Of a stretch of DNA of 41,599 bases, positions 27,628-31,927 are shown piece by piece. Under the pieces are notes generated by a model. It was not told the DNA's origin, did no database searches, and saw nothing but the letters and a program-made list of their open reading frames with translations. Source of the stretch: a virus (lineage: Duplodnaviria > Heunggongvirae > Uroviricota > Caudoviricetes). Positions within the stretch are counted from its first letter, which is position 1; every line of letters begins with the position of its first letter. The stretch is taken from IMG/VR virus record IMGVR_UViG_2740892231_000012; one strand, written 5' to 3'. The position numbers were made by a program, and so were the translations under genes.

Positions 27628-27918
27628 TTACCCCCTTGCGCGTGGTTTCTTCACACCCGGAACGCTGGCGCGACCTTCCGCCACATCCTGACCCCGGCCG
27701 GTCAGTTCGGCGATGAAATAACCGTTAACGAGCGTGCGCTTACGCACCAGTCCCTGCTCGGCAAGCCAGGCAATGTGGGTGTGAACGGTGTCGCGGGACA
27801 CGCGGTGGCCGTAATCATCCAGACAGTCCTGGAGCACGGATTCACCCAGTTCACCGTTGTAATCTGCCAGCGACCGCAGAATGACCAGACGCTGATCTTC
27901 AGTAATGAAATCACTCAT
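27628..27918 (-). CDS. Conserved phage protein (Mu gp26-like)
   Basis: 96-aa ORF, coupled to neighbours in the lysis-to-packaging block. Confidence 0.45.
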   Translation of the reverse strand: MSDFITEDQRLVILRSLADYNGELGESVLQDCLDDYGHRVSRDTVHTHIAWLAEQGLVRKRTLVNGYFIAELTGRGQDVAEGRASVPGVKKPRARG

Positions 27919-28223
27919 TGCGTTTTTTTCCTTACAGCCTGCTCCAGCAGCAGTTCGTTCTGATAGGAGACAGAGCGGAGCGTGGCATTCGTGGTTTTCA
28001 GTTCACCCCGCAGGGTCACGATTTCCACATTCAGACGGTTGACCTCGGCTTCTGTCGGCAGTGACGACAGGCGGGTTTCCACCTTCTCAACGCGGTCGGA
28101 GAGTTTTTCAAAGGCCTCGCGGGGGACAAACGTTTTGCGCATCAGCGCCATGAATATCCCGCCAGCGGTTGCCGTCGCCGAAAGGATCGGCACAACATAA
28201 TCTTTAACGATGCTGACCCACAT
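27915..28223 (-). CDS. Membrane-anchored coiled-coil protein (Mu gp25 releasin-like)
   Basis: N-terminal TM segment VVPILSATATAGGIFMALM then helical domain; position in the lysis cassette. Confidence 0.45.
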   Translation of the reverse strand: MWVSIVKDYVVPILSATATAGGIFMALMRKTFVPREAFEKLSDRVEKVETRLSSLPTEAEVNRLNVEIVTLRGELKTTNATLRSVSYQNELLLEQAVRKKTQ

Positions 28224-28497
28224 GACGGGCCTCCATGATGTTCTGGCAGTTCACACAACGGATGGCATCCGGCACAGCAACAAGACGTGCGGCGGGGATC
28301 TCTCCGCCACAGTCCGCGCAGACACGTCTGCCCGGAGCATCCATTGCCCGGCGCTTACGTGTCAGCCGGTTACAAAGGGCGCGTTCTGATCCCCGCTCCA
28401 TCACAGCCTGAGCACGATCTGAATCATCCATACCTTTTTCCTTACTTCGTCTTTCCTGCCGGAACAGCAGGCGTTCCGGCCATATCAGTAAATTCAT
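28204..28497 (-). CDS. TraR/DksA-family C4 zinc-finger protein
   Basis: CADCGGEIPAARL...RCVNCQ four-cysteine motif typical of phage TraR-like proteins. True start is probably the internal MDDSDRAQ. Confidence 0.65.
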   Translation of the reverse strand: MNLLIWPERLLFRQERRSKEKGMDDSDRAQAVMERGSERALCNRLTRKRRAMDAPGRRVCADCGGEIPAARLVAVPDAIRCVNCQNIMEARHVGQHR

Positions 28498-28717
28498 GTT
28501 GTCGCCGCGCCTCCAGACGACGAATACTGGCCTTGTCCACGTTGCAGTTCTTGATCACCGCCAGCAGTTGCAGGTTGTAAGTGACCGATGCCCCAAACGT
28601 GAACGGCTCCGGCGCAGGAGGGACCAGGCAGTCAGCCAGCCATTCAGCGGGGATCGGCACCGGCTTCACAGGCACGTATTTCACAGACGGCCCGGCGCAC
28701 CCGATCAGCCACATCAT
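28442..28717 (-). CDS. o-spanin (outer-membrane lipoprotein), overlapping the i-spanin 3' end in another frame
   Basis: LFLMMWLIGCAG lipobox-like signal followed by Pro-rich PVKPVPIPAEW...PPAPEP. Confidence 0.6.
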   Translation of the reverse strand: MMWLIGCAGPSVKYVPVKPVPIPAEWLADCLVPPAPEPFTFGASVTYNLQLLAVIKNCNVDKASIRRLEARRQHEFTDMAGTPAVPAGKTK

Positions 28718-29292
28718 CAGGAACAGGGGCAGAGGCCGCAGGCACTGCTGCCAGCGACCGGCGGACAACGCTCTGCTGCCCCTCGCTGTGCTGAATGTTC
28801 TGTTGTTTTTCATTCGTGGCCGCCTCACTGATTTGTGAAATGAGTTGCAGGGTGTGCTGCTGATTTGCCAGCACCTGACGCGCCTCATCCCGCTCACGCA
28901 CAAGCACCTGATTATTGTCTTCAAGGCGCTGCGTCTTCTGGTGCATTCCCCATACCACGGCAGCCAGCACGCTCATCACCCCCAGCGCCGCCATACAGCC
29001 TCCGGCAATCAGGGCCGGTAAGGGATTATTCACCGCAGCCACAGGACACCCCGTAACAGCAGTACCGCACACAGCAGCGCTATCATGAGCGGNNNNNNNN
29101 NNTAGCGGCAACCAGTACAGCGATAATCCCCAGCGCCGCCATGCACGCCCCGGCAATCAGGGCCGGTAAGGCATTATTCACCGCAGCCACAGGACACCCC
29201 GTAACAGCAGTACCGCACACAGCAGCGCTATCATGAGCGGTCGCCAGAAGCGGTTCAGACTTTCGGCAAGTCGTAGCGACATAACCATTCAT
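28644..29292 (-). CDS. i-spanin (inner-membrane, coiled-coil); start uncertain; includes N10 gap at 29093-29102 and duplicated flank
   Basis: TM segment LPALIAGGCMAALGVMSVLAAVVWG followed by Gln-rich helical region; immediately downstream of the endolysin. Confidence 0.55.
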
Positions 29293-29879
29293 CCGCCGAA
29301 CGGCGGGCCTCAAGGCCGGGGAGTTTCACCCCCTTTGAATAAATCCAGCGGATATACTGCTTACAGGACGCGGGCATCTGCCCGGCATTGATCAGGCGCA
29401 GAAGCGTGGAGTTGCGGAAGTTCGTTTCACCGGCCCAGAAGATCCACGAAGCCAGCGCCACAGTCTGACCACGGGTAAGCGGCACCTGAACACGCCGATC
29501 AATGGCCGCAAAGGCCCATTTCATGTCCTTNNNNNNNNNNAAAGTTCGTTTCACCGGCCCAGAAGATCCACGAAGCCAGCGCCACCGTCTGACCACGGGT
29601 AAGCGGCACCTGAACACGCCGATCAATGGCCGCAAAGGCCCATTTCATGTCCTTTTCCAGTAGTTCCAGGCATTCTTCATCTGTCAGGGTCATACCCGGT
29701 TTCACATCCGGGCCGGTATGGCCGTAACAGATGGTGGGTGTACCGGTGGGATCGATATACGTGGAGTTTTCTTTCCCTTCCCAGTAACCGGTGTAATGCG
29801 TGGCAATCGTGAACGTCCCGGCACCGGCCAGAACAAGGGCAATCAGCTTTTTACGCAGTGGTGCGGGGAGTTTTGGCAT
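29255..29879 (-). CDS. SAR endolysin (lysozyme-like); includes N10 gap at 29530-29539 and duplicated flank
   Basis: N-terminal signal-anchor-release segment LIALVLAGAGTFTIATHY, then TICYGHTGPD... and ...VPLTRGQTVALASWIFWAGETNF..., similar to Mu Lys. Confidence 0.8.
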
Positions 29880-29950
29880 TGTTACGCTGTCTCATGATGT
29901 TCTCTGAGTCAGCGTAACGGTGAAGGAAAGGCGGCAGGCTTTGCGGAATA

Positions 29951-30376
29951 TCAGAAAAGTGGCGGTTGCGTTCTTGCCAGATGCAGACGGCGCTGTTCGC
30001 GTATGACGGTATAAATCTGGGTTTCTGACATCCGGTAATGGCGGCGAAGGGATTCAATTTTCTCGCCCCGGTCCCAGCGCGAAAATATCTCATTGTTTCG
30101 CAGCTCGGCAAAGAGAGATTCCCCGACCGGCAGGTAATAACCCCGTCCGCCCATATAGGCTGCCTGAGCCGCAGCCACCTTGCGTGCCAGTTTACCGGCC
30201 AGTACCGGCTCAATCCCCTGACGCTGAAGTTCTGCGCCGGTGACTTCAACCAGTTCTGACAGGGTCCGCGGCCAGTTCTTTTTGAGAACATCATCAGGGA
30301 TGTCATCAAGGCGGTCGATAAGGGCGTGCAGTTGCTCACTGTCACCACCAAACATGCTCATCTGAGTTTCTGCCAT
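29951..30376 (-). CDS. Mor/C-family late transcription activator
   Basis: 141 aa, immediately upstream of the endolysin as for Mu C; helix-turn-helix-like C-terminal region. Confidence 0.7.
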   Translation of the reverse strand: MAETQMSMFGGDSEQLHALIDRLDDIPDDVLKKNWPRTLSELVEVTGAELQRQGIEPVLAGKLARKVAAAQAAYMGGRGYYLPVGESLFAELRNNEIFSRWDRGEKIESLRRHYRMSETQIYTVIREQRRLHLARTQPPLF

Positions 30377-30445
30377 ATCAGCCTCCGGTTCTCGCGTTCC
30401 CGGTAAGTTTAAAATAAAAATCCCGCGTTGTGGCGGGATTTGGGG

Positions 30446-31139
30446 TTAACGGGGAAGTGATTTTTCATACTGCCTGCAAACGGCGTCATACCCCATCAGC
30501 GTGCGTTCGGGCATTCCCATCGCGGCCAGCATTTTGCGGCGGTGCCATCGCTTGAGACGCTCCAGCACATCTGAGGCCAGGGCGGGGTGTTGCTCCAGCC
30601 ACTGCCAGTTTGCCACACCTTCGCCGCCGTTCTGCGCGGCCGTCTGCGATTTCACCCAGCGGTTAAGAGCGGTTTCCGCACCATCAGAGATAAAGCCCTG
30701 CCGGTGCATCACTTTCCAGATGGCGCGAATTTTGGCGGTCACCGTACCCGGTTTTAAGGCCCGGTTAACCGGTTTCTGACGCACTTTAAAACCGCGTTTT
30801 TTGAAAACATCCAGCACGCGGGATAACTCATCCGGTGACATNNNNNNNNNNGGCGGTTTCCGCACCATCGGTGATAAAGCCCTGCCGGTGCATCACCTTC
30901 CAGATGGCGCGAATTTTGGCGGTCACCGTACCCGGTTTTAAGGCCCGGTTAACCGGGTTCTGACGCACTTTAAAACCGCGTTTTTTGAAAACATCCAGCA
31001 CGCGGGATAACTCATCCGGTGACATATCCCGGCAGCTGGTTTTGCCGGTAGCTGCCAGCAGCGCGGATGTATAAGTCTCATCATCCAGGGCAAGCTCGCG
31101 CTTTGCCACATGAATGGCGGATATCAGTTTTCCTCTCAT
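30446..31139 (-). CDS. gemA: GemA-like protein (Mu gp16 family); includes N10 gap at 30842-30851 and duplicated flank
   Basis: MRGKLISAIHVAKRELALDDETYTS...TGKTS...MSPDELSRVLDVFKKRGFKV fits the GemA family pattern. The track shows the same text on both sides of the gap. Confidence 0.65.
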
Positions 31140-31432
31140 ACCGTATTTACCTTTTTACGGACATGGAAAGCCTTTTCTGCCTCATCCCACCGGGCATGGT
31201 GTGTTGGCGGAATAATCATTATGTGCCAGCCATCTCTGCTTGTTATTCGGCAGAAAAATTCACCGTTATATAACACAATGGCCTGCTGAATGAGCGCATC
31301 AGCCGCCCGTTCAACCGGATGTCTTTTATCAAAAAAGCAGATGATTTTTCGACATAACCACCGGGTAATAACAAATGCGCCGAAAAAGGATGTGATATAT
31401 AAGCACCAGAACAACAGAGAACTATTGTCCAT
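31136..31432 (-). CDS. Small membrane-anchored hypothetical protein (98 aa), paralog 1
   Basis: N-terminal TM LFWCLYITSFFGAFVITRWLCRK; AAGGAG ahead of the ATG; diverged paralog of 31631-31927. Confidence 0.5.
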   Translation of the reverse strand: MDNSSLLFWCLYITSFFGAFVITRWLCRKIICFFDKRHPVERAADALIQQAIVLYNGEFFCRITSRDGWHIMIIPPTHHARWDEAEKAFHVRKKVNTV

Positions 31433-31630: not shown

Positions 31631-31927
31631 TCATGCTGTATCAACACTCCTGCGGATATGATAGGTATTATTTTCCCGATCGAGCTGAACCCGATACTCC
31701 GGAGGAATCACAAAAATATTAAAACCATCATCAGTTTTTATTCTTGAGTAGCATTCCCCCTTATGATATCTGGCCAGTGCATTAATCAGAGAAGTCGCCG
31801 CCTGCCCAATCAGGTATTTTTTATGAAAAATACTGATAACTTTCCGGCACAGCCATCGTGTAATGACGAATGCACCGAAAAAGGATGTGATATATAAATA
31901 CCAGAACAACTGCGAACTACTGTCCAT
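31631..31927 (-). CDS. Small membrane-anchored hypothetical protein (98 aa), paralog 2
   Basis: N-terminal TM LFWYLYITSFFGAFVITRWLCRK; preceded by a copy of the same 90-bp upstream segment and followed by a diverged copy of the gemA 5' end. Confidence 0.45.
   Translation of the reverse strand: MDSSSQLFWYLYITSFFGAFVITRWLCRKVISIFHKKYLIGQAATSLINALARYHKGECYSRIKTDDGFNIFVIPPEYRVQLDRENNTYHIRRSVDTA

Follow-up and report, generated by a model that had tools for sequence, protein, structure and literature searches.

In bacteriophage Mu, lysis depends on the SAR (signal-anchor-release) endolysin gp22, the spanins gp23 and gp23.1, gp24 and the releasin gp25 (Chamblee et al., 2022, PMC9239132), and it is the experiments on this phage that define the functions of SAR domain, spanin and releasin. 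Releasins carry a twin-basic junction at the boundary between transmembrane domain (TMD) and cytoplasm, while on the side of the endolysin it is K6 and K7 of the Mu enzyme that confer releasin dependence. The decisive criterion for an endolysin of the SAR type is an inactive membrane-tethered form which is freed by depolarisation or by a pinholin; loss of the spanins leads to spherical cells when Mg2+ stabilises the outer membrane (PMC9239132). Phage 21 and P1-type systems, which combine a pinholin or holin with a SAR endolysin, likewise have a GH24 lysozyme that is exported by Sec and tethered to the membrane and whose catalytic Glu closely follows the SAR segment; two-component spanins are encoded downstream. 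The locus described here resembles them in this predicted arrangement, but no gene for a pinholin with two TMDs precedes its lysozyme and a DUF2730 protein is present instead.

A Mu-type cassette in Sp18-type prophages

The window analysed is a stretch of 41,599 nucleotides (IMG/VR record IMGVR_UViG_2740892231_000012). On its minus strand, five genes in the order of Mu occupy positions 27915-29879, from the lysozyme ATG at 29879 to the stop codon of the DUF2730 gene at 27915 (Table 1). With a C-type late activator upstream and homologues of gp26 and gp27 downstream, the order corresponds to C-22-23-23.1-24-25-26-27 of Mu. Further features shared with Mu are a GH24 lysozyme of the E-X8-D-X5-T type with a SAR-like basic N-terminus, spanins of the overlapped type, a small protein with a CxxC...CxxC pattern, and a DUF2730 protein of full length that carries a twin-basic junction, so that the defining features of the Mu system (PMC9239132) are present at the level of sequence. 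All proteins of the cassette and its flanks except the zinc finger are clearly homologous to their Mu counterparts (25-63% identity, BLASTP), although the identity of the lysis proteins is only 25-40%. Alignment to the individual Mu proteins gave 39% for the lysozyme (E=2e-33), 25% for the i-spanin with gp23 (E=3e-7), 40% for the o-spanin with gp23.1 (E=2e-15) and 35% over 91 aa for the DUF2730 protein with gp25 (E=3e-18, a type I similarity). The matches to the lysozyme, LysC, TraR, DUF2730 and Mor families all lie above the curated cut-offs. The activator has 40% identity with Mu C (E=1e-33) as against 27% with Mu Mor; it is the single activator of the Mor/C family here, and the 18-19-20 genes that Mu has between activator and early region are missing. 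The first-pass annotation had proposed a Mu-type lysis cassette of five genes, and synteny and protein homology bear out both the assignment and its limits.

Table 1. Features of the cassette and its surroundings (positions are those of the window).
Feature	Position	Strand	Details
gp26-like winged-helix protein, next gene of the late operon	27628..27918	-	63% to Mu gp26; NF050184 E=5e-34
DUF2730 protein, 102 aa, homologue of the Mu gp25 releasin	27915..28223	-	N-terminal TMD, R29-K30 junction, helical domain predicted to be cytoplasmic
TraR/DksA-family C4 zinc finger, 75 aa, at the position of Mu gene 24	28204..28431	-	PF01258, TIGR02419
o-spanin, 123-aa precursor	28442..28813	-	lipobox LIGC, Cys39; PF23793 LysC E=2e-16; phrog_3001 E=8e-42
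i-spanin, 132 aa from conserved GTG	28644..29042	-	N-terminal TMD, then periplasmic domain; phrog_214 E=1e-31
N10 29093-29102 with duplicated overlap	29093..29240		29106-29240 = 28958-29092, 135 bp, 13 mismatches
alt36, 36-codon ORF	29178..29288	-	basic N-terminus and one TMD
SAR-type GH24 endolysin, 3' part	29255..29530	-	aa 76-166 and stop; joined to 5' part, intact 166 aa
N10 29531-29540 with duplicated overlap	29531..29654		29542-29654 = 29418-29530, 113 bp, 1 mismatch
SAR-type GH24 endolysin, 5' part	29655..29879	-	aa 1-75: basic N-terminus, SAR 12-31, E34/D43/T49
Hairpin in lysozyme leader	29881..29918	-	14-nt arms, 93% complementary
C-type late transcription activator (Mor family)	29951..30376	-	PF08765 E=3e-32; phrog_532 E=3e-45

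The DNA of the cassette is 98-99% identical (98.6-99.3% over the whole cassette) to that of the Sp18-type Mu-like prophages, namely Sp18 of E. coli O157:H7 Sakai and its relatives, and the prophage of this type carries MuA, MuB, Gam, GemA and Mor. The cassette is intact in 231 out of 5426 complete E. coli genomes, where its genes are annotated as lysozyme, endopeptidase, LysC, TraR and DUF2730. This near-identity to annotated prophages identifies it as a known kind of cassette in a known prophage. The same cassette was found again in E. coli, in Citrobacter and on metagenomic contigs, where its surroundings are Mu-like (GemA, Mor, Gp27, transposase). When genome contigs were scanned with the lysozyme as the query, a single relative, from Citrobacter braakii, was returned; L045 and most of the relatives at 40-50% lysozyme identity were set aside, not being Mu-type cassettes.

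The genes of the cassette overlap or are tightly coupled, with Shine-Dalgarno sequences such as AAGGA..AAAGG before the zinc-finger ATG and GGAGG 7 nt before the ATG of the DUF2730 gene, and no sigma-70-like promoter was found inside the cassette. Both observations fit one activator-dependent late transcript. The locus is probably the late-operon lysis cassette of an E. coli Sp18-type Mu-like (transposable) prophage, each of its genes being the orthologue of its counterpart in Mu 22-23-23.1-24-25, and Mu-like in its mechanism. Save for a tiny unannotated gene for a membrane peptide, described below, the cassette is ordinary and built like that of phage Mu itself. The releasin-type, holin-less strategy defined for Mu in 2022 thus appears also to be the layout of Sp18-type Mu-like prophages, which occur commonly both in Shiga-toxin-producing E. 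coli and in other strains of the species.

The window has to be used with caution since it is a chimeric scaffold, with two runs of ten N and duplicated flanks inside the cassette. The raw ORFs of lysozyme and i-spanin are broken because of these gaps and duplicated contig ends, and both are intact once the overlaps are collapsed; the raw ORFs were therefore not taken at face value, their apparent truncations coming from the N10 gaps. The overlap next to the i-spanin gene (29093..29240) holds a second allele of the 3' end of the 36-codon ORF and of the 5' end of the i-spanin gene. Both the chimeric nature of the scaffold and the 36-codon membrane ORF had been overlooked in the first-pass annotation.

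Lysozyme, zinc finger and DUF2730 protein

Joined across the gap, the endolysin is 99% identical to a RefSeq ‘lysozyme’, matches PF00959 (E=6e-37) and contains the catalytic triad E34-X8-D43-X5-T49 of a GH24 muralytic domain. TMDs and lipoboxes were assigned throughout by hydropathy and motif rules, and by these rules the TM and lipobox signals expected of the cassette are present. A SAR domain was taken to be a weakly hydrophobic TMD rich in Gly/Ala/Ser/Thr which follows one to three basic residues, as judged by hydropathy and composition. Residues 12-31 of the lysozyme (LIALVLAGAGTFTIATHYTG) correspond to this description; they are weakly hydrophobic (maximum KD19 1.39, mean KD 1.3), 11 out of 20 are G, A, S or T, and the basic residues K3, R9, K10 and K11 stand before them. 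Together with the triad, this basic-flanked segment upholds, as far as sequence can, the earlier designation as a SAR endolysin. The lysozyme N-terminus can be aligned with the SAR domain of Mu gp22, for which there is experimental proof, although the segment has fewer glycines here. R9, K10 and K11 are out of register with K6/K7 of Mu in this alignment, which counts against the Mu-like reading.

The n-region/h-region layout of the N-terminus, with a possible A-G-A at residues 18-20, could also be that of an ordinary cleavable Sec signal peptide, in which case the endolysin would be soluble and secreted. We regard this as very improbable, as the hydrophobic run before A20 is just 9 residues long and continues to about residue 31, up to the catalytic E34, and as the segment is G/A/S/T-rich like proven SAR domains and can be aligned with that of gp22.

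The lysozyme leader contains a hairpin that ends 1 nt before the ATG, with the only SD-like sequence, GAGA, lying within it. Its RNA fold has −20.1 kcal/mol (z=−5.5) and none of 200 shuffled sequences folded as well. The leaders of relatives are too divergent to be aligned; hairpins of different sequence occur in them at the same position.

For the protein in the position of Mu gp24, the family scores exceed the cut-offs both for TIGR02419 (E=7e-22; 77.8 bits, cut-off 59.7) and for PF01258 (E=8e-12; 45.4, cut-off 24.9), and the motif CxxC-X17-CxxC, which reads CADC...CVNC, is that of the family. The TraR/DksA-type zinc-finger gene recognised earlier is thus a bona fide TraR-family member; it is weakly similar to Mu gp24, whereas gp24 itself falls below the TraR Pfam model and gave no match to it.

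The membrane protein encoded next, by the annotated gene that is fourth in line behind that of the lysozyme, had been described as releasin-like. It is a full-length DUF2730 protein (PF10805 E=7e-20, profile 3-101/102) with homology to gp25, and its N-terminal TMD comprises residues 9-28 (KD 1.8). The junction reads M28-R29-K30; across 7 clades R29 does not vary and either K or R stands at position 30, in agreement with the twin-basic junction of releasins; the N-out/C-in topology is assigned only by the positive-inside rule. The domain predicted to be cytoplasmic has more basic than acidic residues (14 and 11), in contrast to the anionic picture for gp25, a second point against the Mu-like reading.

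Genes, order, motifs and Mu homology are observed; for the mechanism we rely on the experiments with Mu. According to this model, the C-type activator would switch on the late promoter, and the lysozyme would be exported by Sec and kept tethered to the inner membrane in an inactive state by its weakly hydrophobic SAR segment together with K3, R9, K10 and K11. The DUF2730 protein, oriented N-out/C-in with its body in the cytoplasm, would act as a releasin, as gp25 does in Mu, and assist the exit of the SAR segment from the bilayer, whereupon the freed lysozyme would refold and degrade the peptidoglycan. The i-spanin, anchored in the inner membrane, and the o-spanin, an outer-membrane lipoprotein, would then disrupt the outer membrane. 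A canonical holin would take no part. It is thus by analogy with Mu that we infer tethering, dependence on the releasin and a lack of holin control.

DUF2730 proteins also occur with non-SAR, cytoplasmic endolysins (PMC9239132), so that membership of the family does not by itself prove releasin function. This, along with Mu gp24 having no assigned function and with the spontaneous release, at some rate, of most SAR endolysins (PMC9239132), would suit a model in which the genes for the DUF2730 and TraR-like proteins are needed not for lysis but for some other late process, for instance morphogenesis or transcription, and in which the SAR endolysin releases spontaneously. Such a model is improbable. 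In every case the DUF2730 gene is no more than a few genes away from the endolysin gene (PMC9239132, and the relatives examined here), Mu gp25 is needed for timely lysis and also acts on foreign SAR endolysins, and the SAR segment of the present lysozyme is preceded by four basic residues, it being such residues that lock SAR domains in the membrane (PMC9239132). The divergent pair of lysozyme and DUF2730 protein (35-39% to Mu) should be useful for finding out what makes SAR endolysins releasin-dependent.

A 36-codon membrane ORF beside the lysozyme

A 36-codon ORF, termed alt36 (MVMSLRLAESLNRFWRPLMIALLCAVLLLRGVLWLR), spans the gap from the lysozyme stop to the i-spanin start. It parts the two genes, whereas in Mu the i-spanin gene starts at the lysozyme end. 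Its own start lies within the 3' end of the endolysin gene, and its TGA stop shares bases with an in-frame GTG codon of the i-spanin (GTGA). The ORF is open, with the stop at the same position, in 24 or more haplotypes and in no fewer than six clades, and this holds down to a lysozyme identity of 49%. Synonymous and nonsynonymous changes are in the ratio 29:29 in its frame (omega ~0.43, p=0.001) as compared to 12:49 and 11:54 in the other frames, and pN/pS is 0.53 versus 2.03 and 0.84. Hence, alt36 evolves like coding sequence.

Searches of Pfam, PHROGs and NCBIfam returned no family match for alt36, an exact look-up in a collection of 15 billion proteins did not contain it, tblastn against phages gave self hits only, and it is never annotated in the RefSeq records of Sp18 and its relatives. 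It is missing in Mu and in three other clades with the same lysozyme, spanins and DUF2730 protein, and is therefore dispensable for such cassettes; it is an extra, uncharacterised component of this Mu-like sub-group. The idea that alt36 is a vestige of the 5' end of an i-spanin gene of the Mu type is not supported, since the downstream i-spanin has a TMD of its own, positioned, as judged by eye, as in the clades without alt36. An origin by partial duplication is possible.

These findings bear on the earlier statement that the cassette lacks an obvious separate holin. A TMD scan followed by PHROG scans revealed no holin family among the annotated proteins of an intact prophage copy, in which the annotated TMD proteins of the late region are the lysis proteins only. 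The early region of that prophage encodes two TMD proteins, one of 98 aa with a single TMD and one of 61 aa with two; the ORF for the latter is absent from this window. Neither these two nor alt36 matched a holin in Pfam, PHROG or NCBIfam, and by family match none of the three belongs to the holins or pinholins. The statement thus stands for annotated proteins but must be qualified because of the conserved, unannotated 36-aa membrane ORF that adjoins the lysozyme. As alt36 could supply holin-like activity, its presence in the cassette counts against the Mu-like reading.

It is conceivable that the system is not holin-less and that a small membrane protein, either alt36 or one of the TMD proteins of the early region, is a pinholin-like depolariser triggering SAR release, with the DUF2730 protein as an auxiliary. 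For alt36 this would accord with its occurrence in at least six clades, its coding-type substitution pattern, its basic N-terminus and single TMD, and its location directly after the SAR endolysin, the usual site of lysis accessory genes; for the early region, with the presence of the 61-aa and 98-aa proteins. We nevertheless give this little credence, in view of the dispensability of alt36 in Mu and three clades with the same cassette genes and the lack of a holin family match for any of the candidates. To our knowledge, a protein of 34-36 aa with one TMD would be shorter than any characterised holin. Furthermore, gp19 and gp20, the analogous non-late TMD proteins of Mu, are not holins (PMC9239132). 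DUF2730-dependent release without a canonical holin is our preferred reading.

A related proposal, that alt36 is a real and hitherto unrecognised inner-membrane peptide with a part in controlling lysis in one sub-group of the Mu-like phages, is tentative and unlikely. The peptide might replace a pinholin or act as a minimal depolariser; it might cooperate with the SAR anchor or the releasin, or oppose one of them; or it might be a truncated paralogue of the i-spanin anchor which tunes spanin assembly. If it did have a role in lysis, the sub-group would not be strictly ‘holin-less’. This conserved small membrane ORF is the sole potentially new biology at the locus.

Spanin genes and their starts

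After its TMD (KD 2.2), the i-spanin continues into a charged segment rich in Q, E and R. Its start position is a GTG in the E. coli clade and an ATG in the Citrobacter-like clade, with CGGGG in front. The lengths given by PGAP are inconsistent between records (429, 399 or 351 nt). The longer starts (TTG, the ATG of ‘MNGYV’ and the PGAP GTG of ‘VCGTAV’) were rejected because nonsynonymous changes greatly exceed synonymous ones in the i-spanin frame of the upstream stretch (the 12:49 given above) and because the conserved GTG/ATG with its CGGGG lies downstream.

The o-spanin gene is in the +1 frame relative to the i-spanin gene, overlapping its 3' end by 170 nt and extending 202 nt beyond its stop. 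It had been noted as an out-of-frame lipobox ORF inside the i-spanin gene; the lipobox with Cys39 is indeed found there, and the ATG at 28813, with GAGG 9 nt upstream, is a plausible start. Neither L36 nor C39 varies among five clades, and the mature part is short and proline-rich (85 residues, 11 Pro). Lipobox Cys, mature part and +1-frame overlap together characterise it as an o-spanin. As in P2 LysB/LysC and lambda Rz/Rz1, a type II inner-membrane protein is paired with an outer-membrane lipoprotein that is small, Pro-rich and encoded in the +1 frame, and the o-spanin is a member of the Pfam LysC family; unlike in lambda, where the second gene is embedded, the two are overlapped here.

In the RefSeq annotation of prophages of this type, LysC starts at an internal GTG, and in the Sakai record the o-spanin is not annotated at all. 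The 80-aa PGAP product was rejected because it lacks the signal peptide and the invariant lipobox Cys, and the longer ORF of the first-pass annotation is the better call. Public annotation is thereby corrected with regard to an o-spanin gene that is either truncated at its start or missing, and to the inconsistent starts of the i-spanin.

Lysis genes and their relationship to those of Mu

The Mu-type lysis cassette that the first-pass annotation had placed at 27915-29879 is real and was correctly located and described. Every gene is intact once assembly overlaps are collapsed, and the expected family matches and motifs are present (see table). The evidence supports an apparently holin-less, releasin-containing Mu-type cassette of a known Mu-like prophage, a diverged yet catalogued member of the kind described in 2022, for which we infer the lysis mechanism by orthology.

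Features of the window and of compared loci (L numbers); positions refer to the window unless a locus is named
Feature	Position	Strand	Evidence or remark
N10 runs	4843, 5383, 6599, 13958, 18920, 25832, 26752, 27319, 29093, 29531, 30842, 31520, 32015, 32357, 40027
Gap in cassette	29093-29102		overlap 28958-29092 = 29106-29240, 13 mismatches
Gap in cassette	29531-29540		overlap 29418-29530 = 29542-29654, 1 mismatch
98-aa one-TMD protein, two diverged alleles	31136-31432, 31631-31927	minus	phrog_17269
61-aa two-TMD protein	L004 23928-24113		another strain's prophage copy
Terminator-like hairpin	30418-30441	minus
C-type activator	30376..29951	minus	PF08765
Leader hairpin	29881-29918	minus	-20.1 kcal/mol, z=-5.5
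Lysozyme, 166 aa	29879..29655 joined to 29530..29255	minus	PF00959, E=6e-37
alt36, 36 codons	29288..29178	minus, third frame	KD19 2.3
i-spanin	29042..28644	minus	phrog_214, E=1e-31; TMD KD 2.2
o-spanin	28813..28442	minus, +1 frame	PF23793, E=2e-16
RefSeq 'LysC'	L003 2343-2585 = window 28442-28684		WP_000878401.1, 80 aa
TraR-family zinc finger	28431..28204	minus	TIGR02419, 77.8 bits (cut-off 59.7)
DUF2730 protein	28223..27915	minus	PF10805, E=7e-20, whole profile
gp26-like protein	27918..27628	minus
alt36 homologues	L005 3468-3578; L049 2935-3078; L149 1689-1802; L152/L154 2968-3081; L156 2968-3078
'tRNA-OTHER'	L004 14796-14875	opposite	RefSeq

The lysozyme contains the catalytic triad E34-X8-D43-X5-T49, and its N-terminus is consistent with the SAR-type segment proposed for it: a basic MPKLPAPLRKK is followed by a weakly hydrophobic stretch, LIALVLAGAGTFTIATHYTG, with 11 of 20 residues G, A, S or T and a maximum KD19 of only 1.39 (1.09 for Mu gp22 on the same measure). 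The o-spanin ORF does begin within the i-spanin gene in another frame, 170 nt ahead of the i-spanin stop and with GAGG 9 nt 5' of its ATG. It encodes the lipobox LIGC (Cys39) and a mature part of 85 residues that includes 11 prolines; L36 and C39 are invariant in the five clades compared. In RefSeq/PGAP, 'LysC' begins at a GTG within the gene (VKYVP...) and so lacks its signal peptide and the invariant lipobox cysteine. The Sakai record (L006) is without any o-spanin gene, and annotated i-spanin starts are inconsistent between records (429, 399 or 351 nt). The TraR/DksA-type zinc-finger gene scores above the model cut-off, and the whole-profile DUF2730 match, together with a predicted TMD at residues 9-28 followed by R29-K30, points to the releasin-like membrane protein that had been proposed.

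The gene order is that of Mu (C, 22, 23, 23.1, 24, 25, 26, 27). Alignment to gp22, gp23, gp23.1 and gp25 showed homology to all four (BLASTP identities 39%, 25%, 40% and 35%), and identity was 63% for gp26 and 40% for C, compared with 27% to Mor. The zinc-finger protein has weak similarity to Mu gp24 (37% in a 27-aa stretch around the second CxxC); gp24 itself falls below the TraR Pfam model, whereas same-position proteins in two other clades (L053 and L146) reach it. Experiments identified gp22 as a SAR endolysin and gp23/gp23.1 as spanins, Mu having no holin (Chamblee et al., 2022; PMC9239132). Release of gp22 needs gp25 (DUF2730) owing to the basic residues K6/K7, and DUF2730 genes lie at most five genes from the endolysin gene and encode a junction motif RR or RK (PMC9239132). 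The sequence-level hallmarks of this system are all found in the cassette. The basic residues of its lysozyme are out of column register with K6/K7, and the cytoplasmic domain of its DUF2730 protein is net basic.

Only one Mor/C-family activator is present in the prophage and it is nearer C, which suggests a simpler regulatory cascade than in Mu, where C follows Mor. Inside the cassette, no sigma-70-like promoter was found. A terminator-like hairpin (AAATCCCGCC...GCGGGATTT then a T-run) separates gemA from the activator gene.

Origin of the element and the holin question

Of 5426 complete E. coli genomes, 231 contain a chromosomal prophage with 99.3% identity over the 2.8-kb cassette region. 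Identity is 98.6% to Sp18, a prophage of O157:H7 Sakai recorded as a 'Mu-like phage', and 98.2-98.6% to a 'Mu-like phage' that two records of Stx-converting phages carry as an insertion. An intact copy (L004) encodes a Ner-like repressor region, MuA, MuB, Gam, GemA, the activator, the cassette, gp27, terminase, a DUF935 portal, head genes and Mu-type tail genes. RefSeq places a 'tRNA-OTHER' between its head-morphogenesis and virion-morphogenesis genes.

The proposal that there is no obvious separate holin stands for the annotated genes, because the late-region TMD proteins of the intact copy are the lysozyme, i-spanin and DUF2730 protein only, and the two early-region TMD proteins (61 and 98 aa) match solely PHROGs of unknown function and no holin family. 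The early pair, located in a low-GC stretch (0.41-0.45), is comparable in position to Mu gp19/gp20, neither of which is a holin (PMC9239132).

The window contains 15 runs of exactly 10 N. At nearly all of them the preceding 95-173 bp are repeated after the gap with few mismatches; these are joined contig ends whose overlaps were left unmerged. Between about 30.8 and 32.6 kb, alternative alleles stand in tandem (two GemA N-termini, two 98-aa TMD paralogues and two copies of a 110-aa gene). Because of these alleles and the overlap mismatches, the window is a scaffold mixing at least two related Mu-like prophage copies.

A small ORF and a leader hairpin

Only the unannotated ORF alt36 and, less so, the leader hairpin could add new biology. 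The alt36 product (MVMSLRLAESLNRFWRPLMIALLCAVLLLRGVLWLR) has a basic N-terminus and one TMD. The ORF starts within the lysozyme EWLC codons and is located between the stop of that gene and the i-spanin TMD. The i-spanin start (GTG in E. coli, ATG in the Citrobacter-like clade, with CGGGG in front) is 10 nt upstream of the alt36 stop, which overlaps an in-frame i-spanin GTG three codons further on (GTGA). The role of alt36 may be purely one of translational coupling.

The frame is open, with an unchanged stop position, in every recovered Sp18-type and Citrobacter-type haplotype (24 or more unique). Recognisable homologues of 36-37 codons occur in four further clades (L156, L152, L149/L154 and L049; lysozymes 49-70% identical), giving at least six clades in total. 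Those of the four further clades all have ...WR-x13-RG-x-L... immediately ahead of the stop, with x-LWL in all except L049. Mu, L053/54, L048/146/147 and L155 lack the ORF, and their i-spanin begins right at the lysozyme stop.

In the 64 nt outside both neighbouring genes, substitutions counted along a minimum-spanning tree (24 haplotypes) instead of a phylogeny gave 29 synonymous and 29 nonsynonymous changes in the alt36 frame (omega ~0.43; binomial p=0.001 against a neutral 30%), versus 12:49 and 11:54 in the other two frames. Among nine clade representatives pN/pS was 0.53 in this frame versus 2.03 and 0.84 elsewhere, coding-pattern tests being subject to the caveat that the 3' end of alt36 overlaps the i-spanin initiation signals. 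Pfam, PHROGs and NCBIfam gave no match, and a 15-billion protein collection contained no variant. On balance, alt36 is probably a translated small membrane protein, though by a modest margin.

In the viral contig L033 (IMGVR_UViG_2526164665_000023) a 1-nt indel makes the lysozyme reading frame run on into the TMD-encoding part of alt36, ending ...DLPKSLNRFWRPLMIALLCAVLLLRGVLWLR before the stop, and the L048 lysozyme has a 28-aa C-terminal extension compared with its near-identical relative L146; both are probably sequencing errors.

The leader hairpin ends 1 nt ahead of the lysozyme ATG and encloses a weak GAGA, the sole SD-like element. Several other clades have hairpins in this position, with unrelated sequences. 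The structure may hold back endolysin translation or stabilise the 5' end.
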